Shown piece by piece: positions 6,165 to 54,872 of a stretch of 64,000 nt of DNA. The translations under genes were made by a program, and so were the position numbers. The DNA comes from Nitrososphaeria archaeon (GTDB lineage Archaea > Thermoproteota > Nitrososphaeria > Nitrososphaerales > JAAOZN01). The stretch covers positions 88,589 through 152,588 of the forward strand of contig JARVJZ010000004.1 in the NCBI GenBank assembly GCA_029775855.1, given 5' to 3'. Below the pieces are notes generated by a model, which saw nothing but the letters and a program-made list of their open reading frames with translations, ran no database searches and was not told the origin of the DNA. Position 1 is the first letter of the stretch; every line of letters starts with the position of its first letter.

Positions 6165-6254
6165 ACATTTCTTCAGGATATATAGTTCAATAAGCCATAT
6201 ATGTTTTACTTGTCAACACCATATATACTCCATAATCACAAACTGTAGAAGAAT

Positions 6255-7268
6255 ATGCAGCACAACGACGCACAGTTATCACTAAACCAAAAGAAAAAAT
6301 TTGTTACCACCTTCTTCTTTCTACAGCATCTAAAAAGAAGCATAAAGGGCGATAACCTCTTCATAGTCGTAACTGCTGCGGCATCATCTAGCATAATCAT
6401 AATAATGGCTCTGATGATCTTTAAGATCTACGATGGGGCTGCACCCGTCTTTGAACGATTTGGGGTAAATTTCCTAACCGGTTTAGAATGGAATCCAGTA
6501 GAGGGAATGGAGGCTTATGGTGCTCTACCATACCTCTTAGGTACAATCACCACATCAGCCATAGCGCTTGTTGTTGGTGTTCCGATAAGTTTAGGTGTAG
6601 CCATCTTTTTGGCTGAGATCGCTCCGAGCAGCATTAGAGCGCCTCTATCATACATTATCGAGCTGTTAGCAGCCGTCCCAAGTGTTATCTATGGGCTCTG
6701 GGGAGTGTTTGTATTCAGATTCTGGGTTAGGGATCTGATAGAAAAGCCGCTATCAACTTATTTAGGTTTCGTACCTATATTCAGCGGCACACCATATGGG
6801 TTAAGCATACTTAGCGGCGGGCTTATCCTATCCATTATGATAATTCCAACGGTTTCAGCGGTCTGCAGAGAGGTTCTTCTATCTGTGCCAGCTACACAAA
6901 GAGATGCAGCATATAGCTTAGGTGCAACGAGATGGGAAGCTATAAGAATTGGGGTGCTGAGTTATGCTCGAGCAGGCATAATAGGCGCAATAATCTTAGG
7001 TTTAGGTAGAGCGGTTGGAGAAACGATGGCTGTAACTATGGTTATAGGGAACGCTATTGGTCCTTCCGCGCTACCAACCTCGCTCCTAAAAGCTGGGCAA
7101 ACCATGGCATCCCTTATTGCCAACGAGTTTAATGAAGCAGACCCAGTTTCTCTTCACCCATCAGCCCTTATAGGAGTAGGGTTCATACTACTACTTTCAG
7201 CTCTTTTGATAAATGTTGCAGCTCAAATACTCATATATCGTGTGAGGATGAAGGGAGTTGTGGAGTAA
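6255..7268 (+). CDS. pstC: Phosphate ABC permease PstC
   Basis: IELLAAVPSVIYGLWG, GLGRAVGETMAV, TMASLIANEFNEA. Confidence 0.93.
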   Translation: MQHNDAQLSLNQKKKFVTTFFFLQHLKRSIKGDNLFIVVTAAASSSIIIIMALMIFKIYDGAAPVFERFGVNFLTGLEWNPVEGMEAYGALPYLLGTITTSAIALVVGVPISLGVAIFLAEIAPSSIRAPLSYIIELLAAVPSVIYGLWGVFVFRFWVRDLIEKPLSTYLGFVPIFSGTPYGLSILSGGLILSIMIIPTVSAVCREVLLSVPATQRDAAYSLGATRWEAIRIGVLSYARAGIIGAIILGLGRAVGETMAVTMVIGNAIGPSALPTSLLKAGQTMASLIANEFNEADPVSLHPSALIGVGFILLLSALLINVAAQILIYRVRMKGVVE

Positions 7269-40865: not shown

Positions 40866-43800
40866 TTACTTGCCTTTGGTTATTCTTGACTTTTTTAGGA
40901 GTACTACTATTATTGATACTGCTATGAGTAAAATAACTGAGACCAGTAAGGCTAGATTTAAGTTCTCTGGCGCTGAGACCGCAATTTGTGGAGTTGTAGA
41001 GGTAGGCGTTTCACTTATTGCTTGGGAACTTTCGGTGAATACGCTTTTTTCTCTCTTGGTTTCTATAGTTGTTGTGGTTTCGGTCTTTTCGCTGGCTTGT
41101 GTTTTTATAACCTCTATAGAGCCGCTTGCCTTTAACTTTACGACCGCTAGAACGGGGTCTCCAGTACTCAGAGTAAGAACTATCTCCTTTTTGCCCTCAT
41201 CGTAAACCCAGTTTCTTAGCAGTATATATTCTTCTTTCTGCGCAAGGTACTTGAAGATGCCTATTTCATCAGCTTTCTTAACGTCTAATTCACTTATTTT
41301 AACACTAACAGCTACAGATGCTTCATCTGCCTCGATTATATCTAGGAGTAAAAACTTGGCTTTTTCAGCTATTTCGATTACCTTTGACTCTTTGAATGGA
41401 TTCTCTTGAAGTTGAGTTATCTGCACCACTATCTTACCCTTTGATTCGACTGTGACACCCAGATTTGAGTGAACTTGCCCTTGACCTACAACAGTTTCAC
41501 TTTTAGATGTCACGCTCCTGAGGGTCAAAACACCAGTAGTAGGCTTTGATAAGGCTACCCCAACAAGAGTAGCGCCGTCTAACCTTAACTCTCCAGATCT
41601 AACGACCTTCCCATCTAATTCTGCTAAGAACCTAGGCTTCATAACTTCGTCAGACACTAGAACAAGAAAGTTTCTCACACCAGAAAGCTTAATCTTATCG
41701 TTTTCAACCTTTATAGGCGCATCGGCCCAAACCTCCAACTTACCACCACTGCTATAGTATACTTCTCCACCTTTAGTATCTTCTAGTGAGATTACCGTGG
41801 CTGCTACAGTATGTCCATCAGCATTCACCTGGAGTACTAAGTTTTCTTTGAGCAGATTTTGATCGACCTCAGCTTCGAAGCTGAATCGTTCTTGGCTTCT
41901 AGGCTTTACTTCTTTTTTATCGGATCTGATTTCGTTATGGCCGTTGGCTAATCCAATATAAACATTCGCTGGCTCATCTCCCAAGTTATGAACGGTAGCT
42001 TCGATGCGGGCTACCCCTTCTTTTATGCTGATCTCAACATCTTCTTGTCTAAAAACTATCACTGCACGTAATTTCTCAGCATAGCTTCCTGGTTCAGCTC
42101 TGCTTACTATTTGTGCAGCGTCATGTAGCAGCCTAGCCATTTCATCTATGGTTAGTGAGATATAGTACGTGTCTTCGTATGAAAATCTTAATGATGGTGT
42201 TGAAACTATTAAGTTCAAAACGTCTAGGAGCTCTTGGCGAAGAGCCGAGAATAAAGTTAAGTTACCGGCTATTTCGTTTTGCAGCTCGGGTGTAAGAGCT
42301 TTTAAGGCTGCTCTCCTCAACATTAAGTCTGCTGAATTAACTACATCGATGATTAAGTTAAGGTCACTTATACTGTAGCTGACTTGTGATAAGGAAACTA
42401 AAAGCCTAGCTTTAACTTTATTTAATTGTGATGATAAGTCATTTAGGTCTTTGACGTCTTTGTTGTAGTCGGAAAAAAGAGTGGATGGGGAGCCAGTGTT
42501 TATCATAAATTTAGATGGGATGTAAGTCAAAGTTGATTCCAATGGTATAGGTCTAGGTGACTCAAATTGGTTGACAAATAGAGTAGTCTTAGGACTGGCT
42601 ATACGTAATGTTACTAGTGTTGATAGAATTGGTCCGAGAACTTGTGCTGTGTGTATAAGCGCGAAGACAAAAGCTTCAAATTTACTCTCTTGCCCGCCGA
42701 CGAAAGCGTAGTATAGGGTTGGGGTCCAAACCCCCTTTACCGCCATGTCAAACAAACTGCTTAAGATTAAAGCAAGGTAAAGCTTTGCTACTACATCTTT
42801 TAAGCCTACTTGCTTAGTTGTGGTGCCAGCCTTGAAGGTTAGAGGAATGTTCAAAGCCTTTAAGAGTTGGGGGCTTACGGATATGCTTGAACCCATCATC
42901 TTCTCGTGTATCCCATCAAGCCCTCTAGCTATTGACAGTAGGAGTGCTGCAATATTCTGCGCTTTGATTAACACGTCTGCTGTACCATAGAAGAGCTCTT
43001 CAGTGTAGCTGTAGAAGGATGCAGAGGATAATACGCCTTCACGTTCAACCCTACCACTCCACGTTTGAGAGGCTGGCTTTTTGCTTCGTAGAGAAGATAA
43101 TGGTGAAGTTAGGCTTTCAAAATCGGCTAGCTCATTCGGATACTTTCCAAGGTTAGGCAGTGAAAGCAGGATTACGTTGTTGAGAGCAGGGATTAGAGGA
43201 GAAACTACAGATAACACTGGCGTCCCTACAGGGAAATAGGTGTATTGGGAATCGAGCTCGTTCACTACTATTAACTGCATCATCACATTGTAGAGGTACA
43301 TGAGAGTGTGTGCTATAAGTGTACTTAAAACTTGAAACATCAATTCAAAACTTAACTCACCTAAAAATTCTCCCATACCGATCAGCGAAGAGTAATAAAA
43401 TCTTATTAATTTGAACGAAAAAGCTATAAAAGCAGTGGAGGCTTCTTTACTTCCAAGCATCTCATTAAGGGTTCTGGATATTAAGTCGTTTCCCAGTATA
43501 TTCAGTAGTGAAAGTATAGTGCCTTCAGTTACTAGATACGCTATCTTCTTACTGCCTAATATGGTTGCTACTTCTTTTGGTGCGATGTTGGGATACTTCT
43601 TAGCGATCTGCGCAAAAATATTCTTCTGGTTCCAGAATTTAGTATAGCTGAAATATCCTTTAAAGGTCTCTAAGGTCATGGCTAGAGCGAGTATCTTAGA
43701 GGTTAGTAGAGTTGATAATTCAGCATAGAAATAGTTTCTAAGCATTAATCCTTGTAGGGCAACCAGTTTAGCTAGCTTATTCCAGTAGTTAGTTGGGACA

Positions 43801-46800
43801 TCTATATCGGTAGGACTTAGCCTGAACTGTGGTAGACTAAGGTTCAGAGGATTATTGAAGACTTCCAGTTCAGTACCCCTAGTCTCTTCTGTGCCTATAG
43901 TTGGAAAGATTACCCTTGGTCCTATGTACATTAGATCTTCTTGTCTTTTTAAGGTAGTTGCAAAAATTTCTTTAAGAATATTCTTTATGTCTGACTCGCC
44001 GCTGAAACGGTCTAAGGAATTTAAGAGATTTTGAGCAAATCGCAGCATCTGATTTACTATGGTATGGTCAGCAAGTACCATCTTGTAGTTTGGTTCTACA
44101 GCAAGTTTCTTTTGGTAATCAATATAGTATGTGAAAAGTGAGTATGGTAAGTAGAGTTTTACGTCGTAGACCGCAATTCCTTGAGTTTTTTCTTCTTTAG
44201 GTATTACAACTCTAACTCCCGCATCATTAACATTTAAAGTAGGGTATCCTTTAATACCATAAGAACCGAAATATATTGTATAAGATATTCGATAGACCGC
44301 ATCTTCCTTAATATTCTCATCGTCGTCTAAGGAAACCAGAAGCGGCTTTGAACCCACGCTAAAGCTCTCTATTACTTTGTTAGTCTTGGTGTCGATCAAA
44401 TTGATAGCTACAGGTTTGGGTAAGGGTCTCTCAAGCTTTCCGCTATAGATGCTTTCCCTTATAGAAGTGAGAATATTCCTCCTCCAAGGGTTATCTGGGT
44501 ATCCTAGGTATAAGTCATACGCAGTGATACGTAAGTATTTTCCAAAGGTGTATATGTCGATCCAGCTCGTGGAATCAGCTCCTCTACTATCCTCCGCTTT
44601 TAACCTCAGATATAGGAACTTGGGCACATCACCACGTAAGGTTTCATTTAGCTTGCTGTATGAGGGTATCTTAATCTTGAAGTAAGCATATCCAGTTTTA
44701 TCAGCCTTGCTTTGCATTTTTGATAGTTGCAGTACAACAGTTTTATTTGTTAGTTCTAACCAACTTTCTAATTTGACTGTAACATCCTCAGAACCTTCAC
44801 CATAACTTGCGGTGATAACCTCTACTTCTTCTCCGCTAAGCACTGAATACTTGTCTGGAATTATAAATAAGATCTTACTTTCTCTCTGATACACAGAGGC
44901 TTCGGCTTCTCCATATGGGAACTCTAATATTGTGTTTACATAAACTTCACCCCCAGAAAACATTAGAGGTGTGTAGGTATTGTTTTGCCGTATTATTTGC
45001 CCCATCCAAGCGAAGATGGCATATTGTGTTTCGCCCTGTTCAACTTGGTTTATCGTATCTTTGTCGACGAATGCTCTATTTAGATATAACTCAGCGTATA
45101 ACGGAAAAGTCCTAAATACACCTTTAACAGTAGCGTTGACATATCCTAGTGGCTCACTACTAATTTTGTAGGCCTCAGATTTTTGTTCATGGCTTACTCC
45201 GGTGAGATAACTTTGGTAGGTGGTGGAGCGATCTTCTGCAAACTGCATAAGGACATTAACAGACGGTGGCTTATTATACAGGTAGAGCAGAAGGTCTATC
45301 TTAGAACTTGACTGGAAGACATCTGAGCTTCTACTTTCATCCCACACTATCTCGTCTTTAAAGAACGCTCTACGCTCTCTTAATGAGTAAAATTTATTAT
45401 AGTCTATCTCCTTTGAAACTATCTGAGCTTCTGGTGGGAGTTCAACCTTTTCTTGGATAAAATAAGACTCCCCAGTATAAAGAACTTTTTGGTAACGCTT
45501 AAAGTGCATCTCATGTGAATACATAATGCATTCTAATGATGTAGCTTCAATCGCATAACCAGGTGGAGCAGGGTTAGGCAACCATCCTCCAACCTTAACT
45601 AATCCGCTAACTCGTGTCTTGGCTTGGGCTTCCTCCACTTCAATACCTAGAGGATTCTTACTGTTCTTATAAAGAGATTGCGCGTGATTATAAAGAATTC
45701 CGACATTTAAAAGTAAAGCCCCATCATCTGCATAACCCGCCTTATTAACACTTAACCTTGTATAGGTAGTGTAGGAGCCGTCGAACTTCACCTGCGGAGT
45801 TTCAACGGTATCGGAGAACGTCTTAAGGTCGTAATGAACATGCTTGAGAAATGCTTGAAATCTTTCAGGCCCTACCTCAACTTCGAAATTAAAGGTTAGC
45901 TTAAACCTTTCTTTTGAATCCGATATGGTTAAGCTGACAATATCATTCCCTTTGTAGACCTCTGGATCAATTATGTAGAAGACTGCGGTGCTAAGGAAGA
46001 AACTTTTCATGTCATTGATAAGCAAGTCTATAGTTTGGTTATGCTTTGTAGTAGCTGCTCCTATAGGCTGGAAGATTCTGGTTTTATTCTTATTCCAAAA
46101 GACATGGTGTTTATATTCACTAAGATACCGTTCCATCTCCTCCTCAGTCCACTTAACGTGGATTATAGCGCCTGAGGGGTTAGGGGCAACTATATGCTCG
46201 TAGTCGGCAGGCGCGGCTGGAATGAAGTAGCCTACCTTACCCTCTGTGCTCCATGAGACCGTTAAATGAGAATAATAAAGATCATCTACCGGTAAAGAGC
46301 CCAACAAACTCATTAAATCGTTCGGAAAAGGAATACTCCTCCTTTCACCCTTCAATATACTCCTAACAACACTCAAGATGTTAACCTGTTTGAAACCTAA
46401 GGATAGGAGAAGGCTCTCACCCTTAGGTATCTTCACAGCCCCGCGGTTTGGTATCGTAAGATAAGTGTAAAGCGCTTCAGGGTATTCCTCGTAAACACTT
46501 TCAACTGGGAATGAAATGTGATAAAACATCACATCGCCTTCTTGGTAAAGAGTGTACATGTTCGGTTTAAGAGAGTCTGGGATATAGCCTCCCCACAACA
46601 AGTATTGATCAAACTTAATCTTATCTATGCGATAAGTTAGGTTATAGGGCTCACGACCTATCGTAATAGGTCCGACCTTTTTCCAGCCGGGGAAGGAGAT
46701 GTTTAGCAAGAAGTAATCTTTGCCCTTGTAGAGATAATTTGTAATATAGTCTAGGTATGTAGGTCTACTTTCAGCCTTCCAAAACTCCAGTGCACCTAAA

Positions 46801-47030
46801 GGTTCACTAAAACTTATTGGTGGGTCTATAACCTTGCCTAAGCTTTCGTAAGGCAAGCCTCTAAATACAAACATTCCGTTGATTATTAAGTTGTTTGAAA
46901 GCCAATTTCTTAATTGAGTGTATGGGTCATCTAAGGCCACCGCTAGTGGTGAAGATAAATTTGATAAAGCCAACATAAATATGAGCGATGATGCAGCTAG
47001 TTTTAGCGTATGGTTCTTCATCTCACACAT
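40866..47030 (-). CDS. Giant (2054 aa) secreted, C-terminally anchored multidomain surface protein
   Basis: Signal peptide, Ig/MG-like beta segments, hydrophobic helical core, CARDB-like segment, Thr/Ser linker, TM plus basic tail. Confidence 0.85.
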   Translation of the reverse strand: MCEMKNHTLKLAASSLIFMLALSNLSSPLAVALDDPYTQLRNWLSNNLIINGMFVFRGLPYESLGKVIDPPISFSEPLGALEFWKAESRPTYLDYITNYLYKGKDYFLLNISFPGWKKVGPITIGREPYNLTYRIDKIKFDQYLLWGGYIPDSLKPNMYTLYQEGDVMFYHISFPVESVYEEYPEALYTYLTIPNRGAVKIPKGESLLLSLGFKQVNILSVVRSILKGERRSIPFPNDLMSLLGSLPVDDLYYSHLTVSWSTEGKVGYFIPAAPADYEHIVAPNPSGAIIHVKWTEEEMERYLSEYKHHVFWNKNKTRIFQPIGAATTKHNQTIDLLINDMKSFFLSTAVFYIIDPEVYKGNDIVSLTISDSKERFKLTFNFEVEVGPERFQAFLKHVHYDLKTFSDTVETPQVKFDGSYTTYTRLSVNKAGYADDGALLLNVGILYNHAQSLYKNSKNPLGIEVEEAQAKTRVSGLVKVGGWLPNPAPPGYAIEATSLECIMYSHEMHFKRYQKVLYTGESYFIQEKVELPPEAQIVSKEIDYNKFYSLRERRAFFKDEIVWDESRSSDVFQSSSKIDLLLYLYNKPPSVNVLMQFAEDRSTTYQSYLTGVSHEQKSEAYKISSEPLGYVNATVKGVFRTFPLYAELYLNRAFVDKDTINQVEQGETQYAIFAWMGQIIRQNNTYTPLMFSGGEVYVNTILEFPYGEAEASVYQRESKILFIIPDKYSVLSGEEVEVITASYGEGSEDVTVKLESWLELTNKTVVLQLSKMQSKADKTGYAYFKIKIPSYSKLNETLRGDVPKFLYLRLKAEDSRGADSTSWIDIYTFGKYLRITAYDLYLGYPDNPWRRNILTSIRESIYSGKLERPLPKPVAINLIDTKTNKVIESFSVGSKPLLVSLDDDENIKEDAVYRISYTIYFGSYGIKGYPTLNVNDAGVRVVIPKEEKTQGIAVYDVKLYLPYSLFTYYIDYQKKLAVEPNYKMVLADHTIVNQMLRFAQNLLNSLDRFSGESDIKNILKEIFATTLKRQEDLMYIGPRVIFPTIGTEETRGTELEVFNNPLNLSLPQFRLSPTDIDVPTNYWNKLAKLVALQGLMLRNYFYAELSTLLTSKILALAMTLETFKGYFSYTKFWNQKNIFAQIAKKYPNIAPKEVATILGSKKIAYLVTEGTILSLLNILGNDLISRTLNEMLGSKEASTAFIAFSFKLIRFYYSSLIGMGEFLGELSFELMFQVLSTLIAHTLMYLYNVMMQLIVVNELDSQYTYFPVGTPVLSVVSPLIPALNNVILLSLPNLGKYPNELADFESLTSPLSSLRSKKPASQTWSGRVEREGVLSSASFYSYTEELFYGTADVLIKAQNIAALLLSIARGLDGIHEKMMGSSISVSPQLLKALNIPLTFKAGTTTKQVGLKDVVAKLYLALILSSLFDMAVKGVWTPTLYYAFVGGQESKFEAFVFALIHTAQVLGPILSTLVTLRIASPKTTLFVNQFESPRPIPLESTLTYIPSKFMINTGSPSTLFSDYNKDVKDLNDLSSQLNKVKARLLVSLSQVSYSISDLNLIIDVVNSADLMLRRAALKALTPELQNEIAGNLTLFSALRQELLDVLNLIVSTPSLRFSYEDTYYISLTIDEMARLLHDAAQIVSRAEPGSYAEKLRAVIVFRQEDVEISIKEGVARIEATVHNLGDEPANVYIGLANGHNEIRSDKKEVKPRSQERFSFEAEVDQNLLKENLVLQVNADGHTVAATVISLEDTKGGEVYYSSGGKLEVWADAPIKVENDKIKLSGVRNFLVLVSDEVMKPRFLAELDGKVVRSGELRLDGATLVGVALSKPTTGVLTLRSVTSKSETVVGQGQVHSNLGVTVESKGKIVVQITQLQENPFKESKVIEIAEKAKFLLLDIIEADEASVAVSVKISELDVKKADEIGIFKYLAQKEEYILLRNWVYDEGKKEIVLTLSTGDPVLAVVKLKASGSIEVIKTQASEKTETTTTIETKREKSVFTESSQAISETPTSTTPQIAVSAPENLNLALLVSVILLIAVSIIVVLLKKSRITKGK

Positions 47031-47279
47031 CTACTAGTTTTAGCTAAATTATTTAAATTATTCGTGACAAGTTGCGGAGGGGGTTGAAAAGAATACTTAC
47101 TTAACAGCGCTATATCAGTCCTTATTTTGAATCTTGCCGATGCTCCCTGTCTCAGGCATTCAATTTCACCCCTATGCTTTATCCGCTGCTAGAGACCCGT
47201 TTTATATGATTATGCATCCAAGAAAACATAGCTGAAAAAGGTAAACTTTAAAGAAAGGCTTATATAGTTTATTAACAGC

Positions 47280-49100
47280 ATGTGCATCAATTTGAGCGTC
47301 AAGCATCTTTTATCAAGGAGGCAGACTCTTGCCGTCCTCCTTACAATTGCGATTATTGGAGGGTTACTTTTCATTCCTCAAGCATCCGCCATCAGGGTGG
47401 AGATAAGCGGTATAACCAGCGGTGAAACTATAACGCTTGGTGTAGTTAAAGAACTTGAGTTTAGGATAGTTGTGGAAAGCGGCGAAGTGGTGCCTGTGCA
47501 AGAGATACGTGTAGTCATAGATGGTGTGCAATACACAGCTCCACCTACTGGTGGTGACCTAACACCAGCAAACAGCATCATACCAACAATCACACTAGTT
47601 ACACCACCACCAGGCTACTTCTACTCAGCAAGCTACGGCTACGGATACGGATACCTCTACGGATACGGATATGCATTCGGATATGGATACAGAGCTCTCT
47701 ACGGCTACGGTTACGGATATGGTTTCACATCTGGCAGCCAGATAAGGTATTCAGCATCACTCTACACATCATATCTAAGTTTAGGCAGCCACACAATAAG
47801 GGTTGATGTAGCGACTGGTCTCCAGCCCTCAAACATATTCTCCTCACAGACCATATCGTTCACGTTAGTATCCCCGCCTACACCTACACAACCAGCACCA
47901 TCAGCACCACCAACAGCGTCTGATCTCGAAGCTATGTCTGCTGAGGAGAGGGCTGCACAACTTACACAGATGAATGCATCTGACGCAGCAAATAGAATTG
48001 AGCAGATGAGCGTAGACAAAGCTGTAGAAGCAATAAAGGCGATGAACGCTACAGACGCAGCAAGAATACTTAACCTCGTCAACACAACTAGAGCTGCTCA
48101 AATCCTAGCCAGATTAACCGTTGAAGAAGCGGTTAGAATTACACTTAACCTCAACGTGGACAAAGCTGCAGACGTCGTTTTAACGATGGATGTAAGAGAA
48201 GCCGCGCCGGTAGTTGAGGGAATGACTAGGGAGAATCTGCATAGGGCTGCTCAAGTAGTAGATAATATGATTGCTAAGGATGCTGCAGGCGCAGCTAGAG
48301 TTATAGATGAACTACCTCCAGACGTGGCAGCTGATCTACTACTCGAGATAGCTGGGTTGCCCTCAACACCTGAGAAGGCCGCTATGCTCATAGATGCGAT
48401 GAGCTTAACGAAGGCTGTTGACGCCGTAAAGTCGATTATAGCATCCAACAAGATGCAGACACTCGCACAGATACTCAGCCACGTATCAACAAGCAGACTC
48501 AACGAAATATTCAAGCAGCTCTCATCTAGTGAGAGGCTCAGAACCCTACCATATCTCGACGCAGCGACACAAGCTAGGTTGAAACACGTAAAGGCGACCT
48601 TGACAGTAGAAAGGGTGGATGCACAGCCGGGCAGCTCAGTCAAAGTTAGGTTGGCCCTATCATCTACTCAACCCATACCTGAAGGCTCTGTATCATTCAG
48701 CATCCCAGCCGCTTTCAAGACAAAAGCTCTATCTGTTGAAGGGCTACCTGGAACATCTGCAAGAGAGGCTACTAGGCTCATAGTCACTAAGTTGGCTACT
48801 CAACCATCATACGCAGCTGCTTCAGTCGCATTCGACTTGGTTGTGCCACTTAACGCCAGCGTCTCGGTTGGGCAGATTGTCACGGTAGTTGCGTCGGTGA
48901 ACGTGCCAGACTTTGCTGTAAGCTTTGACACACCAACAGCGGTAAGTGTGACTGTGGTTAAACCTACGGTGCAGAGCATATTCAGCGCCTTAAACTCCTA
49001 CTTCGATAAGACAGTAAGCGTATACACTGAGGGAAGAGTGCCTGTGAAGCAAGACATATACAGCTTACTGGACTTCTACTTCAGAGGGAGAGTGGATTAA
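47280..49100 (+). CDS. Secreted protein: GY repeats, MgtE-N/FliG-like helical repeats, beta-sandwich, putative dockerin-like tail
   Basis: Signal peptide; GYGYGY tract; about 12-aa M....AA..I/L periodicity; terminal duplicated helices IFSALNSYF / IYSLLDFYF. Confidence 0.8.
   Translation: MCINLSVKHLLSRRQTLAVLLTIAIIGGLLFIPQASAIRVEISGITSGETITLGVVKELEFRIVVESGEVVPVQEIRVVIDGVQYTAPPTGGDLTPANSIIPTITLVTPPPGYFYSASYGYGYGYLYGYGYAFGYGYRALYGYGYGYGFTSGSQIRYSASLYTSYLSLGSHTIRVDVATGLQPSNIFSSQTISFTLVSPPTPTQPAPSAPPTASDLEAMSAEERAAQLTQMNASDAANRIEQMSVDKAVEAIKAMNATDAARILNLVNTTRAAQILARLTVEEAVRITLNLNVDKAADVVLTMDVREAAPVVEGMTRENLHRAAQVVDNMIAKDAAGAARVIDELPPDVAADLLLEIAGLPSTPEKAAMLIDAMSLTKAVDAVKSIIASNKMQTLAQILSHVSTSRLNEIFKQLSSSERLRTLPYLDAATQARLKHVKATLTVERVDAQPGSSVKVRLALSSTQPIPEGSVSFSIPAAFKTKALSVEGLPGTSAREATRLIVTKLATQPSYAAASVAFDLVVPLNASVSVGQIVTVVASVNVPDFAVSFDTPTAVSVTVVKPTVQSIFSALNSYFDKTVSVYTEGRVPVKQDIYSLLDFYFRGRVD
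47613..47726 (+). repeat. Coding Gly-Tyr repeat tract
   Basis: Encodes GYFYSASYGYGYGYLYGYGYAFGYGYRALYGYGYGYGF using TACGGA/TACGGC/TATGGA units. Confidence 0.85.
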
Positions 49101-49101
49101 G

Positions 49102-50028
49102 ATGAATAAGTTATGCTTTAATAACTTGACTTCATATGGATGTGCGGGTAAAGCCTTGAAGATATACACCTATACAGCTTTAGCGATTCTTATACTTGCC
49201 TCAGTATTGACATTCCTACCTAACGTATATTCAGCGCAAGCAACAGCTGCCTTCAATCTCTCAGATGGTTTGATTAAGGTTGAAGTCACAAGCCCGGTAG
49301 AAGTCTATCAATTTCAACTCTCAATAACTCTACCTAGTGGTGCAACCATCAATGCTGCGCAAGCATCTACCACGGGCTTCATGGAGAATGCGGTCTTCCT
49401 GCAGGTGGGCAATGAATATAGGTGGTTCAATCTTGACGCAAAACCATCGAAGGTAGGCTCATTAACCGTGCCAGCTTCTGGAGTAGGTGTAGACAACTTA
49501 CCTCAGCTGCAGCTAGTAAGATTGGATCTGCTGGACGCGGGTGGAAATAAGATAGATCTTCAGCAGACATTACCGCTAAAGGCTACACTGGCACCGATTA
49601 CAGTGACAACTACGGTTAGGGAGACTATAACCACGACAACAACCGTAACCCAGACAACAACGCGCACAACCACAGTAACACAGCCTACAACAACCACACT
49701 CACATCAACCATAACGCAGCCGACCACAATTACAACTACCTCTACAGTCACACAACCAACCACAGTCACAATAACGGTTACTTCAACAACAACTCAGCCA
49801 ACAACAGTTACCGCGACATCTACAACTACAGCAACCGAAGTCAAAACCACAACTCAGACAACTACATCAACATCCACATACACAATAACTAGAACAGAGC
49901 TAGCAACTACAACGGCCTACAAAGAGATAACCGTAGACACAACACCATACATAGCAGGCATCGTTATACTGATAATTATAATCATCATCCTAGCGATCCT
50001 AATGCTTAGACGCAAAGCAGCGGTCTAA
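49102..50028 (+). CDS. Membrane-anchored protein: cohesin-like domain, Thr-rich stalk, C-terminal TM
   Basis: Signal segment, VEV.SP.EVYQFQLSITLP...LLDAGGNKI, about 110-aa Thr tract, TM plus RRK. Confidence 0.8.
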   Translation: MNKLCFNNLTSYGCAGKALKIYTYTALAILILASVLTFLPNVYSAQATAAFNLSDGLIKVEVTSPVEVYQFQLSITLPSGATINAAQASTTGFMENAVFLQVGNEYRWFNLDAKPSKVGSLTVPASGVGVDNLPQLQLVRLDLLDAGGNKIDLQQTLPLKATLAPITVTTTVRETITTTTTVTQTTTRTTTVTQPTTTTLTSTITQPTTITTTSTVTQPTTVTITVTSTTTQPTTVTATSTTTATEVKTTTQTTTSTSTYTITRTELATTTAYKEITVDTTPYIAGIVILIIIIIILAILMLRRKAAV

Positions 50029-50056
50029 ACCCCAATTTTTTAAACTTAGATAAAAG

Positions 50057-50129
50057 TGCGGGATGCGGGATTCGAACCCGCGACCACCAGCTTGGGGGGC
50101 TGGTATCCTAACCACTAGACCAATCCCGC
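50057..50129 (-). tRNA. tRNA-Gly(CCC), C at position 33, CCA not encoded
   Basis: Acceptor GCGGGAT/ATCCCGC; anticodon arm CCAGC-CCCCCAA-GCTGG; T-arm GCGGG-TTCGAAT-CCCGC. Confidence 0.9.
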
Positions 50130-50245: not shown

Positions 50246-50380
50246 GCCGCGGTCGCCTAGGCTAAACAAGGGGGAGACGCTAAATGCCCCAGCTCGGTAG
50301 GGCGCAGGCCTGGAGCCTTAGTCCAGCTTGTTAGCCTGTGACCCGCAAGGGTCTCGAGGGTTCAAATCCCTCCCGCGGCG
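50246..50380 (+). tRNA. tRNA-Ser(GGA) with a D-loop intron (about 32 nt) and a 37/38 intron (about 17 nt)
   Basis: Acceptor GCCGCGG/CCGCGGC; CAGGC-CTGGAG..A-GCCTG; variable and T arms nearly identical to tRNA-Ser(GCT). Confidence 0.88.
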
Positions 50381-50448
50381 CTCTCTATTAAGAAGCTGGT
50401 TAATATTAAAGATATTTAACGATTTAGGGAACTTTACTACTTATTATA

Positions 50449-50486
50449 GTTAATTAATTAATTAATTAACAAAAAATTTATATTTC
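50449..50486 (+). promoter_or_regulatory. 22-bp perfect palindrome followed by a BRE/TATA-like element of the downstream cassette
   Basis: GTTAATTAATTAATTAATTAAC (50449-50470), then AAAAAATTTATA about 27-38 nt upstream of ATG 50509. Confidence 0.55.
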
Positions 50487-50508
50487 AGATGCGCTCTTAC
50501 TCAGTTCT

Positions 50509-50778
50509 ATGAATTGGAAGGCGTCGAGTAAAGATTTCCGTGAAGAATTAGAAAGAATCTTCCAAGAAGGCGAGCGTAAAGGCTTACAATATGTAGATGT
50601 TATTTCAGGTGAGCTACATAGGAGAGTAGGTGGGTACCCCGGACGCAATCATAGAATGCCGCTCTGTTGTCACGTTATGCGAAGTATGATGCAAGAAGAA
50701 GATGAAGTGCTTGCTGAGCCGCCTAAAGGTAATGGGGCTACCCTAAAGATAAGGTATAGATTGCCAAGGAGGGTTTGA
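50509..50778 (+). CDS. Small conserved protein of unknown function (GELHR..GGYPG.NHRMP.CC family)
   Basis: 89 aa with SGELHRRVGGYPGRNHRMPLCC...PPKGNGATLKIRYRLPR, a family I recall near or fused to nucleases. Confidence 0.75.
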   Translation: MNWKASSKDFREELERIFQEGERKGLQYVDVISGELHRRVGGYPGRNHRMPLCCHVMRSMMQEEDEVLAEPPKGNGATLKIRYRLPRRV

Positions 50779-50779
50779 A

Positions 50780-51253
50780 GTGAGGATTCTTATAGTCGTA
50801 CCTTGCGGGAAGAGTAAGATCTGGGATGTAGACCAGGACAGAGGGCCGACGAGGGCAGAGGAAGCATACACTGGAGGGCCGTTCAAGGTTAATCGGGCGT
50901 TTGCAAAGAGATTCGCCGATAGATGGGTGATCCTTTCAGCTAAATACGGTTTCATAGACCCGTCTTTCACTATCCTCGAAAATTATAACGTGACATTTAA
51001 AGACCCTTCTACTAACCCGATAAGTTTAGAACAGCTAAGAAGCCAGGTGGATGAGATGAAGCTGGATGCATACGATGTCGTGATAGCCTTAGGCGGCAGA
51101 GATTACACATCAATAGTCAAGAGGTGTTTTGGCGATAAAAAGAAGGTGATATGCCCAGCTGAAGGGCTGCCGGTGGGTAAAGCTATGGGGTGCATCAGTA
51201 ATCTTACAAATCTCGACAGAGAGGAGATGCTAAGGGAGATAGGTTTGTGTTAA
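50780..51253 (+). CDS. DUF6884 / YaaA-like protein
   Basis: VPCGKSK, A.EAYTG..F, W.ILSAKYGF..P...ENYN, LGGRDY. Confidence 0.78.
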   Translation: MRILIVVPCGKSKIWDVDQDRGPTRAEEAYTGGPFKVNRAFAKRFADRWVILSAKYGFIDPSFTILENYNVTFKDPSTNPISLEQLRSQVDEMKLDAYDVVIALGGRDYTSIVKRCFGDKKKVICPAEGLPVGKAMGCISNLTNLDREEMLREIGLC

Positions 51254-51894
51254 TGTGGAGAAATTCTGTGGAAGAAATCTGTAGATGTGTACATGAACTT
51301 ATCAGCTCACTGTCAGCGTACTCTAATCCCAGTCAAGTGTCTTTCACCAATGGCCTATACTTCTTTTACGAGAAGGGGGAAGTGTCCATTCATGCACCCA
51401 ATGGTCGTGTTGTTAGAGTAGGTAATCACCCATATTCAAGCAATGGTTTAAAAAGGCGCTTGCAGCTCCACTACTCTGGAAACAAGAATAGCAGCGTGTT
51501 CCGCAAGTTCCTTGGAGGAGCTTTAATGCGTAGAGAAAACCCTGCACATCCATGTTTACCTCATTGGGAAAAGCAAGGCCAACCTACCTGCAAAGTATGC
51601 AGGAAGGTCGAAGAAGATGTTTCAAATCTTCTAAGAGCTAACTTCTACTTCCGATGTGTAAAGATCGAGGATAAAGGGACGCGTAATCTTCTTGAGAAAA
51701 AGCTGATAGCCACAATCTCTTCATGTAAGATATGTAAGCCGTCTGGAAATTGGTTAGGGAGGTACGCATATTCAGATCTTGTTAGAAGTTCTGGTTTATG
51801 GAACTCTAATTATGTTTATGATGGGGATTGGGTTATGTCAGCAGAAGATTTAAATTTGCTGCGTAATCTGATACAGTTAACGCGTGTAAGGTAA
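51247..51894 (+). CDS. Putative GIY-YIG-like nuclease
   Basis: GLYFF..VVRVG..LKRRL..H, SVFRK..G.AL, LEKKLI, SGLWN, which match the GxY / xxG / R / E / N layout of GIY-YIG. Start may be ATG 51253. Confidence 0.65.
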   Translation: MLMWRNSVEEICRCVHELISSLSAYSNPSQVSFTNGLYFFYEKGEVSIHAPNGRVVRVGNHPYSSNGLKRRLQLHYSGNKNSSVFRKFLGGALMRRENPAHPCLPHWEKQGQPTCKVCRKVEEDVSNLLRANFYFRCVKIEDKGTRNLLEKKLIATISSCKICKPSGNWLGRYAYSDLVRSSGLWNSNYVYDGDWVMSAEDLNLLRNLIQLTRVR

Positions 51895-52046
51895 TGACAG
51901 CGCAGAGCCGTATTGTTCTTTGCAGCTATTGTAAGAGAAGAAGGGCGGAATATGACATTGGCAGCGAGGTTTATCTATGCAAGGAATGTTACGAGGAGTG
52001 GCACTTTAACGCTTTTCAACAGATGAGTGAATTCAGCTTATTCTAA
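51894..52046 (+). CDS. 50-aa zinc-finger microprotein (not in the ORF track)
   Basis: MTAQSRIVLCSYCKRRRAEYDIGSEVYLCKECYEEWHFNAFQQMSEFSLF; two CxxC motifs; its ATG overlaps the upstream stop (TAATG). Confidence 0.7.
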   Translation: MTAQSRIVLCSYCKRRRAEYDIGSEVYLCKECYEEWHFNAFQQMSEFSLF

Positions 52047-53263
52047 CGATACACCGCTCTTTTTGAACGATCAACACCCACTGGAAGCAGAAGTATAACG
52101 CTTAAGACCATTGCCGCTGCTGAAAGTGTAAAGGCTGGGCTATAGCTACCCATAGACTCACGTAGAAAGCCCGCAACAATAGGAGATACTGTAGCACCGA
52201 TACCGTAAAATAAGGTCCATAAGCCGATTACTGATCCAGACGACTTCTCCTCAAAATACTCTGAAGCGCAAGCTGCATATATAGGGAACATAGACGCATA
52301 AAAGATGCCGTACATAATGGCTAAGAGCATCAGTAGATGGAGACTTGCTCCAATAGCAACCATGCTGTAGATTGACACTGCGACACCAAGGTTGCAGAGG
52401 GCTAAGCCTTGTATTCGACCTATTTTGTCTGATAGATATGGGAGGATTAGACTTGCGGGGATGCCGCTGAAGGCAACGGCGCTAGCCAGTCCTGCCGAAT
52501 AAGCATAATCTATTGAGAGATCTATGTTAAAGTATGCTACCATAAAGGTCATCGTGGTGCTTGTAGCGAAGGCTATAGCAAAGTATGATGAGGCTATGAA
52601 CCAGAACGTTCCTGATGATAAGATTATTTGAGTTGCTTCTTGTGTTCTAAATTCTCTTCGTCTATCCGTTGATTCTTTTTCTTTTAGGAGAAGCGCTGAG
52701 GCTGCAGCTAGTGTTAGGGTGAAGACGCCCATTAGATACCATCCATGCTGCCAACCATAGGTGTCTACAATTATTGGCAGCAGTAAACCCATCAAGCCGT
52801 ATCCAACACCATAGCCTGAATTCACTACTCCTATTGCTCTACCTCTCTTCTCAGCTTTAAACCACATAGTAACAAGCCTTATGATTGCAACCCATCCAGC
52901 GTGTGAACCAACCCCGACGAGCGCGAATAAGAAGACTCCTAGAGACCACTCTTTAACAGAACCCATCATAAATGTGCCGAACCCCATCACCACACAGAGC
53001 AGCGGTATAACCTTCTTGCAGCCAACTCTATCAACCATGAAGCCTATCAGTGGCGCTGATAGCGTATATGAGAGGAAATAGGCGCTTGCTATAAACCCGC
53101 TCTGAACATCTGTCAAATTTAGAGAAGACTTCATCGGCGGTATTAGAATACCGTATCCAAACCTTATGCCATATGATGCGAGCACAAGAAGAAAACCTAC
53201 ACCAAGTATCACATAACCCCAGTAAAAGCGCTTGAGCATCCTCTTGTATGAGAATAGACCCAT
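52043..53263 (-). CDS. MFS transporter
   Basis: About 12 TM segments, G.MVDRVG, WF..EKRG.A.G, LSDKIGR. Confidence 0.9.
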   Translation of the reverse strand: MGLFSYKRMLKRFYWGYVILGVGFLLVLASYGIRFGYGILIPPMKSSLNLTDVQSGFIASAYFLSYTLSAPLIGFMVDRVGCKKVIPLLCVVMGFGTFMMGSVKEWSLGVFLFALVGVGSHAGWVAIIRLVTMWFKAEKRGRAIGVVNSGYGVGYGLMGLLLPIIVDTYGWQHGWYLMGVFTLTLAAASALLLKEKESTDRRREFRTQEATQIILSSGTFWFIASSYFAIAFATSTTMTFMVAYFNIDLSIDYAYSAGLASAVAFSGIPASLILPYLSDKIGRIQGLALCNLGVAVSIYSMVAIGASLHLLMLLAIMYGIFYASMFPIYAACASEYFEEKSSGSVIGLWTLFYGIGATVSPIVAGFLRESMGSYSPAFTLSAAAMVLSVILLLPVGVDRSKRAVYR

Positions 53264-53317
53264 TAGATTAAGTTTCTCTTTTTAATAAAAATATGAAGTG
53301 GGTAGGTTTTCTTTATG

Positions 53318-54091
53318 CTACCTACCCTTAAAGACAGGCTTCCTCTTTTCCAGAAACGCTCTCATAGCCTCCTTTTGATCCTCAGTTGTGAAGAGTGGAA
53401 GCTGCTCGAGCTGCTGGTAAAGTAGCCCATCGTCGATCTGCATCTCTCCACCAACATTGATGGTCATCTTGATGGCGCCGATTGCCTTTGTCGGCCCGTT
53501 TGCTAATTGATTGGCGATTCTAAATGCTTCTTCAAAGAGTTTATCTGCTGGAACGACCCAGTTGACTAATCCAAGCTTCTGAGCTTCCCAAGCTGATATT
53601 GGATCTGGGAAGAAGAGGAGCTGCTTGGCCTTTAATCTGCCAACCCATCTAACTAGAAGCTGGGAGATTCCTGCGCCTGGTGAGATTCCTACGCCTACCT
53701 CTGGGTTGGCTAATCTTGCGTCATCAGCAGCAACGATGAGGTCAAAGCCGTTCAGCATATCCATTACGCAGAAGCCGTTGACCGCAGCTATAATCGGCTT
53801 CCTCAGCCTCATCATATATTTGTAGAGCTCTATCATTTTGCCGTTAAACTTGAGCATGAATTCTGGGGTTGCATCTTTGAACTCCTGTAAGTCGCCACCA
53901 GCATTAAAGTTCCTACCAGCAGCTGTGAATAGTATGGCTCTTACACTATCGTCTTCACCGGCTCTGTGCATGGCATCCCAGAGCTCAGAGACCATCTGAG
54001 AGTTGACTGCATTATTCACCTCAGGTCTATTCAAAGTGATTATAGCAACGCCGCCACGCTGCTCATACTTGATAGTCTTATACTCAGACAT
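53318..54091 (-). CDS. Enoyl-CoA hydratase/isomerase family protein
   Basis: ITLNRPE..NA, AGGDL, KPIIAAVNG, PEV.VG, AFLEKRKPVFKG. Confidence 0.9.
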   Translation of the reverse strand: MSEYKTIKYEQRGGVAIITLNRPEVNNAVNSQMVSELWDAMHRAGEDDSVRAILFTAAGRNFNAGGDLQEFKDATPEFMLKFNGKMIELYKYMMRLRKPIIAAVNGFCVMDMLNGFDLIVAADDARLANPEVGVGISPGAGISQLLVRWVGRLKAKQLLFFPDPISAWEAQKLGLVNWVVPADKLFEEAFRIANQLANGPTKAIGAIKMTINVGGEMQIDDGLLYQQLEQLPLFTTEDQKEAMRAFLEKRKPVFKGR

Positions 54092-54173
54092 AGCGCATCG
54101 TTAAGCATTTATCAAAAGGGTCTTTTTAGCCTTTCGACTAAAAGGTTAAAGCATCTTATGTCTTTCAAAATCT

Positions 54174-54872
54174 ATGATGCAGAGGGCTAAGGTAGGTACA
54201 TCTGGATACAGCTACTTTTGGAACTTAGGTGTGCCTACACCCTTTGAGTGGTATGTTAAACAAGGCTTTAACACAGTCGAGATCAATGCAAGCTTCTACC
54301 GTTTTCCCTCTCCAAGCTGGATCAAGGCTTGGAGTAAAGCGCCCTCAGGATTTGATTTCTCCGTTAAGGTGCATCGCTCTCTAACACACTACGCTAAGCT
54401 TTCAGAGAAAGCAGTAAAGCTTTGGTATATCTTCAAAGATCTGTTCAAACCTATTGGGGACAGAATTGCTTTCTGGCTCTTTCAGATGCCTCCAAGCTTT
54501 ACACCAACAGAAAAGAACCTAAAACGCATTAAAGCCTTCTTCAACACGCTGCATCTAGGCTCATCAGCTGCTGTTGAATTTAGGGATCCCGCGTGGTGGA
54601 GCGTTAAAAATGATTTAAAGGATTGTGAGGTTACTTTCTGCTCAGTAGATGCACCTTTTCTGCCGAGAGAAATAGTCTGTCTGAGTGATGCGCTCTATCT
54701 TAGGCTTCACGGTAGAGAAGAGTGGTACGCTTACACATATAGTAGGCGTGAACTTGAGGAGATTGCGAAGCGGGTTAAAGAAGCGCAAACAGAGAGAATA
54801 TACATATATTTGAACAACGACTTTGGTATGCTAGAGAATGGCAAACTTCTACTGAAGCTTTTAGAAGAGTAG
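54174..54872 (+). CDS. DUF72 family protein
   Basis: VGTSGY, TVEINASFYRFP, FQMPPSF, YLRLHGR, YLNND. Confidence 0.9.
   Translation: MMQRAKVGTSGYSYFWNLGVPTPFEWYVKQGFNTVEINASFYRFPSPSWIKAWSKAPSGFDFSVKVHRSLTHYAKLSEKAVKLWYIFKDLFKPIGDRIAFWLFQMPPSFTPTEKNLKRIKAFFNTLHLGSSAAVEFRDPAWWSVKNDLKDCEVTFCSVDAPFLPREIVCLSDALYLRLHGREEWYAYTYSRRELEEIAKRVKEAQTERIYIYLNNDFGMLENGKLLLKLLEE

Follow-up and report, generated by a model that had tools for sequence, protein, structure and literature searches.

The question raised by this locus is what a compact cassette of four open reading frames (ORFs) does in the Nitrososphaeria archaeon that carries it, and whether it belongs to a system that has already been described. 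The cassette lies in a window of 64,000 nucleotides (contig JARVJZ010000004.1, positions 88,589 to 152,588), to whose coordinates all positions below refer. Its ORFs, all on the + strand, are called g1 to g4 in order: g1 (50509..50778) encodes an 89-aa protein of an unnamed family with a winged-helix-like predicted fold; g2 (50780..51253), with a GTG start, a 157-aa DUF6884 (YaaA/DpdC-like) protein; g3 (51253..51894) a 213-aa GIY_YIG_3 (PF26468) endonuclease-like protein with Cys/His clusters; and g4 (51894..52046) a 50-aa protein with the pattern CxxC-x15-CxxC of a zinc ribbon. The original prediction, made from the sequence alone, had described four co-oriented, tightly coupled ORFs, and all of this is present in the sequence. 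The gap between g1 and g2 is 1 nt, the g2/g3 and g3/g4 junctions are TAATG stop/start overlaps, and the GTG of g2 is preceded by GGAGG 9 nt upstream. The motifs quoted at that time are found as well, namely SGELHRRVGGYPGRNHRMPLCC in g1, CKVC and CKIC in g3, and CSYC...CKEC in g4. The best explanation for the locus is that g1, g2 and g3 are one horizontally acquired operon, an archaeal three-part variant of PDC-M57, a two-gene candidate in the PADLOC catalogue.

The cassette had been thought to match no named system. This claim fails because g2 and g3 as a pair are a member of a catalogued candidate. Of the PADLOC models, PDC-M57A matched g2 (2.7e-12, 45.2 bits, positions 1-134 of 138) and PDC-M57B matched g3 (7.1e-39, 131.6 bits, positions 3-207 of 211), a second B model following at 4.1e-20. 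The assignment as used here means model matches together with adjacency on the same strand and is not the formal call of the PADLOC program. The PDCs are presented as 145 "guilt-by-embedding" candidates, obtained from genes that lie within BREX, DISARM or type I restriction–modification (RM) loci (Payne et al., bioRxiv 10.1101/2024.01.29.577857). The name PDC-M57 was not found in the literature searched, and NCBIfam gave no match for g1, g2 or g3. What the locus adds to the catalogue entry is a divergent archaeal form with a third conserved partner, together with the breadth of the g1 family and its fusions.

The reading of g2 as a DUF6884/YaaA-like protein was borne out. It matched PF21818 (DUF6884) at 2.8e-15 with 57.1 bits, the Pfam cut-off being 30, and it keeps both family motifs, C9-G-K-S-K13 (CxxxK) and I51-L52-S-A-K-Y-G57 (LSAxxG). 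In an alignment of 12 relatives K13, L52, S53, A54 and G57 were invariant, and C9 was present in at least 90%. CxxxK and LSAxxG are the motifs named for DUF6884 and its YaaA-like 'cantaloupe' fold in PMC11701544. The same source describes a base-flipping model for DUF6884, with the flipped base modelled in YfjM; it lists YfjM, a DUF6884 member, among the proteins recovered as binders of abasic and RNA-base lesions, and it characterizes YaaA as a DNA-binding oxidative-stress protein. At window position 50976 the codon is CTC (Leu66 of g2) here, compared with CCC (Pro) in the contigs of all four other runs compared. Three of the closest g2 relatives also have Pro at this place, and Leu66 could reflect strain variation or a faulty assembly.

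For g3 a GIY-YIG-like protein had been expected, and both the family assignment and the predicted structure agree with this. We found 267 relatives at E<=1e-3 in archaea and bacteria, with 50-78% identity among the 120 listed. All of these 120, including the 100%-identical protein P0001, carry PF26468 in precomputed annotation, and the Atlas name is GIY_YIG_3; the Pfam copy that we scanned is without the PF26468 model and gave for g3 only GIY_YIG_2 at 0.029, below threshold. The AlphaFold (AF2) model has a predicted local distance difference test score (pLDDT) of 94.9 and a predicted template modelling score (pTM) of 0.91. When it was compared with 48,161 chains, the top five matches were all GIY-YIG proteins with Z 4.4-6.0: the N-domain of GrxS16 (6.0), T4 EndoII (5.6), UvrC (5.6), I-TevI (5.2) and Eco29kI (4.4). 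The matches span nearly the whole targets (85 of 89 residues for UvrC; 88 of 92 residues). At rank 11 the scan gave PD-T4-3 (PDB 9u75), an enzyme specific for 5-hydroxymethylcytosine, with Z 3.7. Because the five best structural matches agree with each other and with the Pfam assignment, the predicted GIY-YIG fold of g3 can be regarded as safe.

The catalytic set of GIY-YIG enzymes comprises a Tyr in strand 1, a Tyr in strand 2, an Arg in helix 1, a Glu after strand 3 and an Asn. Invariant in the g3 alignment are Y39, E43, H47, R52, R55, N58, H59, R69, C101, H104, C113, C116, R134, N145, E148, C158, C161 and N184, and Y36 is present in at least 90% of the rows. Judged from the alignment and the model, Y39, R69, E148, N145 and N184, as well as Y36, appear to lie in the expected structural elements. 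Two Cys/His clusters, C101/H104/C113/C116 and C135/C158/C161, are inserted into the fold and may be zinc sites. The earlier description of a 215-aa protein with CxxC pairs was right about the pairs; as to the length, g3 has 213 aa from its ATG and 215 aa if it is read from the open GTG at 51247. In a relative represented in an RNA library (see below) the ATG reads ACG, which leaves GTG 51247 as the start there. Close relatives begin the protein at this alternative GTG.

The first gene, g1, belongs to a family of about 85 aa with the motif GELHRRVGGYPGxNHRMPxCC. The best match (97% identity) is labelled Nitrososphaerales archaeon, 118 of 119 candidates reach E<=1e-3, and a profile search gave 1476 representative proteins at the same threshold; none of the 34 members scanned contains a Pfam family. 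The AF2 model (pLDDT 88) shows helices at residues 7-23, 33-40 and 50-59 and strands at 28-32, 66-69 and 80-84. This topology, helix-strand-helix-helix-strand-strand, would fit a winged helix, and the 50 structural neighbours listed are mostly winged-helix DNA binders with Z 4.6-6.5, among them RctB (6.5), JetB (6.2), E2F (5.3) and F-112 (5.2). A Foldseek search of the PDB with this model gave no match at E<=1e-3. The family shows no variation at H37, C53 and C54, and at least 90% of its members have H48; all four residues lie in or near the loop preceding the third helix. We propose that g1 is the DNA-binding or targeting part of the module. Many g1 relatives are named '5-methylcytosine-specific restriction protein A' by one source; this automatic name found no support in the searches made, the members scanned containing neither HNH nor any other Pfam family.

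That the genes occur together elsewhere could be shown from both ends of the cassette. Contigs from one genome per species yielded 33 g3 loci, which include Bathyarchaeia, Thermoplasmata, Chloroflexota, Acidobacteriota, Actinomycetota, Omnitrophota and Proteobacteria. In 17 of them, spread over many phyla, a gene of the YaaA/DUF6884/DpdC class adjoins g3 on either side or is part of the same ORF (16 by Pfam and L015 by PADLOC, with a DpdC match of 7e-28), which is a minimum count, since several contigs stop close to the match. On a Deinococcus plasmid an annotated DUF6884 gene stands upstream of a g3 homologue. Two fusions combine the functions in one protein: at locus L097 a 405-aa DUF6884+GIY_YIG_2 protein follows a g1 homologue, and in genome G003 (G003:C106; L132:1078-2166, - strand) a 362-aa TPR+DUF6884+GIY-YIG (PF01541) protein adjoins an N6/N4 DNA methylase (N6_N4_Mtase). 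Complete triads were found in four other loci in varied order, DUF6884-g1-g3 in L110, g3-DUF6884-g1 in L074 and L085, and in L028 a g1-like domain fused to DUF6884 and followed by g3.

Starting from g1, we analysed 80 metagenome loci taken from 529 confirmed relatives and found a g2 and/or g3 homologue nearby in 11 of them by tblastn and in 10 by hidden Markov model (HMM) search. A scan for fusions covered the best 150 of the 1476 relatives, of which the 102 with a length of at least 157 aa were scanned. DUF6884 or YaaA is fused to the g1 domain, on either side, in 23 of these 102. The other fusion partners are HEPN_Swt1, DUF4145 (4), NucS_C (3), DpnI_C, TIR_2, XRE-type helix-turn-helix (HTH) domains (2 relatives), kinase/TPR and HEAT. 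The remaining neighbours of g1 are largely nuclease or defence-type genes: GmrSD in three loci (L045, L047, L099), HNH_2 in three (L039, L046, L059), UvrD/PD-(D/E)XK in four (L039, L046, L049, L059), and furthermore NERD, HD, DUF2726 and GIY-YIG+DUF7662. Near g3 we saw type I R-like, DndH/DndE-like, SoFic, HEC-09/NYN and PDC-S11 genes. Judged from these gene arrangements, g1, g2 and g3 appear to be one functional unit, of which g1 would be a part shared with other systems. A complex prediction for g2 and g3 with g1 as scored partner gave 0.00 and was run without controls, so that it has no bearing either way.

Several of these loci deserve a separate word. The Thermoplasmata metagenome-assembled genome (MAG) with locus L015 encodes, at L015:171-938 and directly upstream of the g3 homologue, the 255-aa protein with the DpdC match; the contig is 1.9 kb long, and no dpdA or dpdB can be seen on it. 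Genome G003 is of the same genus as the window and without the cassette, yet it encodes the 362-aa fusion mentioned above. In L011, L016, L020, L023 and L024 (Actinomycetota and others, high GC) a DUF7664 domain lies ahead of the g3 domain in the same open frame, and in L011 and L023 a YaaA-like stretch also follows the g3 domain. DUF7664 has the same position relative to g3 as g1 has, yet a kinship of the two was rejected, since profile comparison gave a probability of 1.8%. DUF7662 is found in similar company in L030 and L056. No naming paper for DUF7664, DUF7662 or PF26468 was found in the literature searched.

The cassette is accessory and not syntenic core. Among 41 related genomes (3 congeneric, the others from the same order; completeness 60-100%), g3 was found in one and g1 in one, both times the window's own genome, and DUF6884 in two. 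The sister genome G003 shows the locus without the segment that holds the cassette. On its contig C37 the orthologous tRNA pair, 80% identical, ends at 6233, and the next gene starts 66 nt later at 6299. This gene is the ortholog of the DUF72 gene at 54174-54872 of the window (71% aa identity). Where G003 has 66 nt after the same tRNA pair, the window has 3.8 kb (50382..54173), which contain g1-g4, a major facilitator superfamily (MFS) transporter (52043-53263, - strand), which is convergent to g4 and shares 4 nt with its 3' end, and an enoyl-CoA hydratase (53318-54091, - strand). The synteny was anchored on the tRNA DNA and not on the transporter, whose best matches in the three genomes of the genus reach no more than 25-30% identity. 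A present/absent polymorphism at the 3' side of a tRNA gene is as in a tRNA-linked integrative island. Integrases were not found among the window ORFs, nor was there an att-like repeat (none longer than 22 nt, none derived from the tRNA end), and GC content and composition are like those of the flanks. The absence of a methylase, which had been noted next to the YaaA-like and GIY-YIG genes, holds for all ORFs from 29 kb to 64 kb.

In close Nitrososphaerales MAGs g1, g2 and g3 have consecutive accessions and are all labelled hypothetical. Among 50,697 phage records none matched g3, and among 72,556 plasmid records 4 did. Metagenome runs from hot springs, belonging to several studies, contain the stretch. 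One run has AGA in place of the g1 stop codon, which extends g1 to a 102-aa form known from MAGs. One RNA library contains contigs spanning 50918-51389, which bridges the g2/g3 junction, and 51403-51806, with about 96% identity. These contigs are only a hint of expression in a relative of the window organism, since contigs are no proof of a transcript and RNA libraries may be contaminated with DNA. Over g2 and g3 this relative differs by 14 synonymous and 15 non-synonymous changes, a synonymous share above that of random mutation and compatible with coding constraint on both genes.

Within the cassette g4 stands apart. The 50-aa CxxC-CxxC microprotein of the original prediction exists as an open frame with the pattern described, a pattern that seldom arises by chance (324 kb of other loci yielded 5 such small ORFs). 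A sequence search with g4 gave no relative, and its exact sequence is absent from a 15-billion-protein collection in which g1, g2 and g3 are present. Pfam matches were sub-threshold only, and the Atlas gave only unnamed small proteins (0.92-0.93). No listed variant falls inside g4 among the other-run contigs compared. A pattern scan of 33 loci did not show an equivalent small zinc-ribbon ORF beside g3. The predicted four-gene unit has accordingly to be reduced to three genes, since g4 is not kept beside the others; from its sequence it appears to be a lineage-specific, local add-on outside the conserved g1-g2-g3 unit. A Bathyarchaeia locus with the g2-g3 pair (L003) has, 600 nt upstream and on the other strand, an ORF of 56 aa that contains several CxxC pairs (L003:5227-5397, -). 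No other small zinc-ribbon-like ORF was seen in the vicinity of a close g3 homologue, and this one does not resemble g4 in sequence.

How might the three proteins act together? We propose that g2 binds DNA and flips a base into the pocket formed by its Cys-x3-Lys and LSAxxG motifs, and that it would thereby read an unusual base, be it modified or damaged. g3, with its zinc-type Cys/His clusters, would then cut the DNA marked by g2. g1, winged-helix-like and with a His/Cys-rich loop, may add DNA binding or targeting. We infer base flipping by g2 because its distant relative DpdC has a modified base in DNA as its substrate (PMC10164549) and because a flipped base has been modelled in YfjM. The data show the identities and fold classes of the genes, their joint occurrence and fusions, and that the cassette is accessory; DNA reading, cleavage, the choice of target and defence are conclusions drawn beyond them. 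As to the purpose of such an activity, a type IV-like restriction of foreign DNA carrying unusual bases would fit best, since no methylase accompanies the genes; we would put the chances of this function at about even.

A number of observations weigh against the reading as a three-part restriction operon. The PDCs were added to PADLOC as candidates that their authors describe as untested (bioRxiv 10.1101/2024.01.29.577857), and activity against viruses or as a nuclease has yet to be demonstrated for the g3/PDC-M57 family. The window is not a defence island: by Pfam, the flanks of the cassette are transporters and metabolic genes, and integrase and att-like repeats are missing. The pairing of the genes is incomplete, with 16 of the 33 g3 loci lacking a recognised YaaA-class neighbour and 70 of the 80 g1 loci showing neither partner in the HMM search. 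For the latter reason g1 has to be regarded as promiscuous rather than dedicated. In the 33 g3-seeded loci tblastn found no g1, and the HMM found it once and weakly (L028, 3e-4). On the structural side the Z values are middling for g3 and below 8 throughout for both g3 and g1, and a few Smr domains are mixed with the winged helices among the neighbours of g1. For g3, Foldseek gave no match in the PDB at E<=1e-3, and a sequence profile search of the PDB with the g3 alignment gave none at E<=1. Strand 2 of g3 reads V-R-V-G, with an Arg where the second motif Tyr is expected, and because this Tyr seems to be replaced, catalysis may differ from that of the canonical enzymes. In the 90% cluster of g3, five of nine proteins (P0399-P0403) have only 122-170 aa and internal Met starts. 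Three of these five come from contigs of 39-99 kb. The short length may be due to a disrupted N-terminal part in these MAGs or to a different gene call. Finally, lesion binding by the DUF6884 protein YfjM fits repair as well as defence.

This last point leads to the alternative that the module repairs the cell's own DNA, g2 recognising a damaged or non-canonical base (abasic, ribonucleotide, oxidised) and g3 incising like UvrC, perhaps as a hot-spring adaptation. The lesions bound by YfjM and the oxidative-stress role of YaaA, as described in PMC11701544, speak for it, as do the UvrC GIY-YIG domain among the best structural matches of g3 (Z 5.6), the hot-spring origin of the metagenome runs that contain this DNA, and a window without methylase and defence island. 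A repair function should, however, be widely retained, whereas g3 is present in one of the 41 genomes and the segment is missing in the sister species. In the loci scanned, the neighbours of g3 and g1 did not include a repair gene but did include transposases and restriction-type, HEPN, NYN, SoFic and Dnd-like genes. Fusion partners of the g1 domain are of the HEPN, TIR and NucS type, and PADLOC lists the pair because homologues lie within BREX, DISARM or type I RM loci, as stated for its candidates (bioRxiv 10.1101/2024.01.29.577857). We consider repair unlikely. Still less probable is an RM-like pair in which g2 would alter a host base, as DpdC does in converting preQ0 to ADG, and g3 would cut unmarked DNA. 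The partial matches of g2 and its relatives to DpdC models (1.9e-4 to 1.1e-3) are in line with it, and so are the gene that immediately precedes the g3 homologue in L015 (strong DpdC match, 7e-28), the conserved Cys and Lys of g2, which suggest catalysis, and the report that DpdC modifies DNA independently of DpdA/B (PMC10164549). DpdC nevertheless needs preQ0 that has been inserted beforehand by DpdA/DpdB, and no such genes are present in the cassette or its flanks; only 52-67 residues of g2 match the 310-319 positions of the DpdC models; and the fusion in the sister genome G003 adjoins an ordinary DNA methylase, which suggests that a methylase supplies protection where it is needed.

An altogether different view takes the genes as a selfish or addiction-type nuclease cassette, similar to a homing endonuclease or a toxin-antitoxin pair and kept by its own mobility instead of by a benefit to the host. 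Homing endonucleases use the GIY-YIG fold (I-TevI is matched with Z 5.2), the distribution over archaea and bacteria is patchy, transposase genes adjoin two homologues (L004, L021), and the cassette follows the 3' end of a tRNA gene. It does not lie within an intron or intein, however, and no integrase, transposase or flanking repeat is found here, nor is the composition foreign. It is missing from the 50,697 phage records and found in only 4 of the 72,556 plasmid records, and its steady pairing with a DNA-reader domain is not a trait of homing endonucleases. We hold this view to be highly improbable. A separate question is whether g1 is merely the transcription regulator of the operon and has no role in target recognition. 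It is small, the first gene and winged-helix-like in its model, its structural neighbours include GntR, CtsR, PurR and BrxR-type regulators, it stands beside many unrelated nuclease genes as portable regulators do, and two relatives have an extra XRE-type HTH. Its fusions to DUF6884/YaaA (23 of 102), HEPN, TIR, NucS_C, DpnI_C and kinase domains would be unusual for a pure repressor, and the His/Cys-rich loop (H37, C53, C54; H48 in at least 90%) is not found in ordinary winged-HTH regulators. A purely regulatory g1 is possible but in our view doubtful.

The sequences around the cassette were examined as well. Ahead of g1 an AT-rich palindromic stretch had been noted, and (TTAA)5 was indeed found at 50450-50469. 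Together with the TATA-like box TTTATATT at 50477-50484, about 29 nt ahead of the g1 ATG, it forms a region (50450..50484, + strand, palindromes I5-I7) that, from general knowledge of archaeal promoters, is probably the promoter, with a short or absent leader. Further upstream are two divergent tRNA genes. tRNA-Gly(CCC) at 50056..50129 (- strand) was found by ARAGORN and by the Rfam tRNA model with 67.7 bits. Its partner directly ahead of the cassette (50246..50380, + strand) had been called tRNA-Ser(GGA), and a reading of the sequence by eye supports an intron-bearing archaeal tRNA, most likely Ser(GGA). The acceptor stem 50246-50252/50373-50379 has 7 perfect base pairs, the T arm lies at 50356-50372, the variable arm is long, and the anticodon stem 50305-50309/50334-50338 encloses the loop CU-GGA-G with GGA at 50312-50314. 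This fold requires two insertions, one of 17 nt after the anticodon and one of about 30 nt in the D-arm region. The programs do not name Ser(GGA): ARAGORN reports 50286-50381 as Thr(AGT) with a mismatched acceptor stem, also with intron options, and Rfam gave no + strand tRNA at this site at E<=1. A tRNA-Ser(GGA) with two insertions is thus plausible. In G003 a second partial copy of the 3' half of this tRNA (G003:C37:2580-2693, 74% identity) lies 3.3 kb upstream of the orthologous gene. On the far side of the tRNA pair, the window contains a 2054-aa ORF without any Pfam family (40866-47030, - strand), followed by two probable surface proteins (47280-49100 and 49102-50028, both + strand). One of these has Tyr-Gly repeats and a MgtE_N-like stretch, the other long Thr-rich repeats and a C-terminal membrane anchor. 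When the region 40866-50028 was compared by tblastx with the G003 contig on which the orthologous tRNA pair lies, no match was found.

Should the module restrict foreign DNA, one of the PADLOC candidates would gain a mechanism. The YaaA/DUF6884/DpdC fold, hitherto tied to stress response and DNA modification, would then serve as the reading head of a nuclease, and a defence system would be added for thermophilic Nitrososphaerales-type archaea; for Thermoproteota a recent survey reports a generally lower prevalence of defence systems (PMC12988326). If the module repairs lesions instead, it would represent an accessory incision pathway in hot-spring archaea. Independently of this, the g1 domain is a large family without a Pfam model in the versions consulted, and its fusions with HEPN, TIR, nuclease and DUF6884 domains show it to be a recurrent part of conflict systems, for which a name and a structure are due. 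A bolder joint claim can be formulated: the g1/DUF6884/GIY_YIG_3 triad would be a new class of modification-dependent restriction, in which a DpdC-like base-flipping reader detects hypermodified viral bases such as 7-deazaguanines and licenses a zinc-bearing GIY-YIG nuclease, and g1 would be the founding member of an unnamed winged-helix sensor domain with a His/Cys loop that is widely reused in prokaryotic conflict systems (1476 representative proteins; HEPN, TIR, NucS, DpnI-type and kinase fusions). That all of these parts hold at once seems unlikely to us.

How does the cassette compare with the systems already known? With the type IV enzymes GmrSD and McrA it shares the principle of a nuclease without methylase, and the g1 family is found beside GmrSD and HNH genes (3 loci each of 80); in sequence g2 and g3 are unrelated to GmrSD or McrA. 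R.Eco29kI and PD-T4-3 (PDB 9u75) have the catalytic fold class of g3 (Z 4.4 and 3.7) and are nucleases used against foreign DNA, which is the role proposed for g3. g3 differs from them in belonging to another family, GIY_YIG_3, in its inserted Cys/His clusters and in the Arg in place of the second Tyr, and it would rely on separate partner proteins. Eco29kI has a cognate methylase, whereas the cassette is without one. PD-T4-3, as described for PDB 9u75, is an example of a GIY-YIG enzyme that is dependent on base modification.

YaaA of E. coli and YfjM of B. subtilis are DNA binders with the DUF328/DUF6884 'cantaloupe' fold, and g2 is linked to them by its score above the DUF6884 threshold and by the CxxxK and LSAxxG motifs. 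They are described as stand-alone stress or lesion binders (PMC11701544), whereas g2 is translationally coupled to a nuclease gene and to g1. DpdC is of the same broad fold class as g2 and, as reported in PMC10164549, acts on a modified base within double-stranded DNA, independently of DpdA/B. The matches of g2 and its relatives to the DpdC models are weak and partial, the neighbour in L015 being a strong one; g2 has half the size of DpdC, and no dpdA/dpdB, other dpd, TGT-like or ParB-like gene is present in the cassette or flanks. The restriction side of the Dpd system is described as a large multi-protein machine, compared with a GIY-YIG enzyme here. From its sequence g2 would thus be a relative of DpdC and not a member of a Dpd system. 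The closest counterpart is PDC-M57, with g2 corresponding to M57A and g3 to M57B, adjacent and on the same strand. The archaeal copy of the present locus is divergent. On M57A, loci from Gammaproteobacteria reach 1e-35 to 1e-39, and g3 shares only about 32% identity with the B proteins encoded there. To the two-gene definition of PDC-M57 the cassette adds g1, predicted to be co-transcribed, and the small g4.

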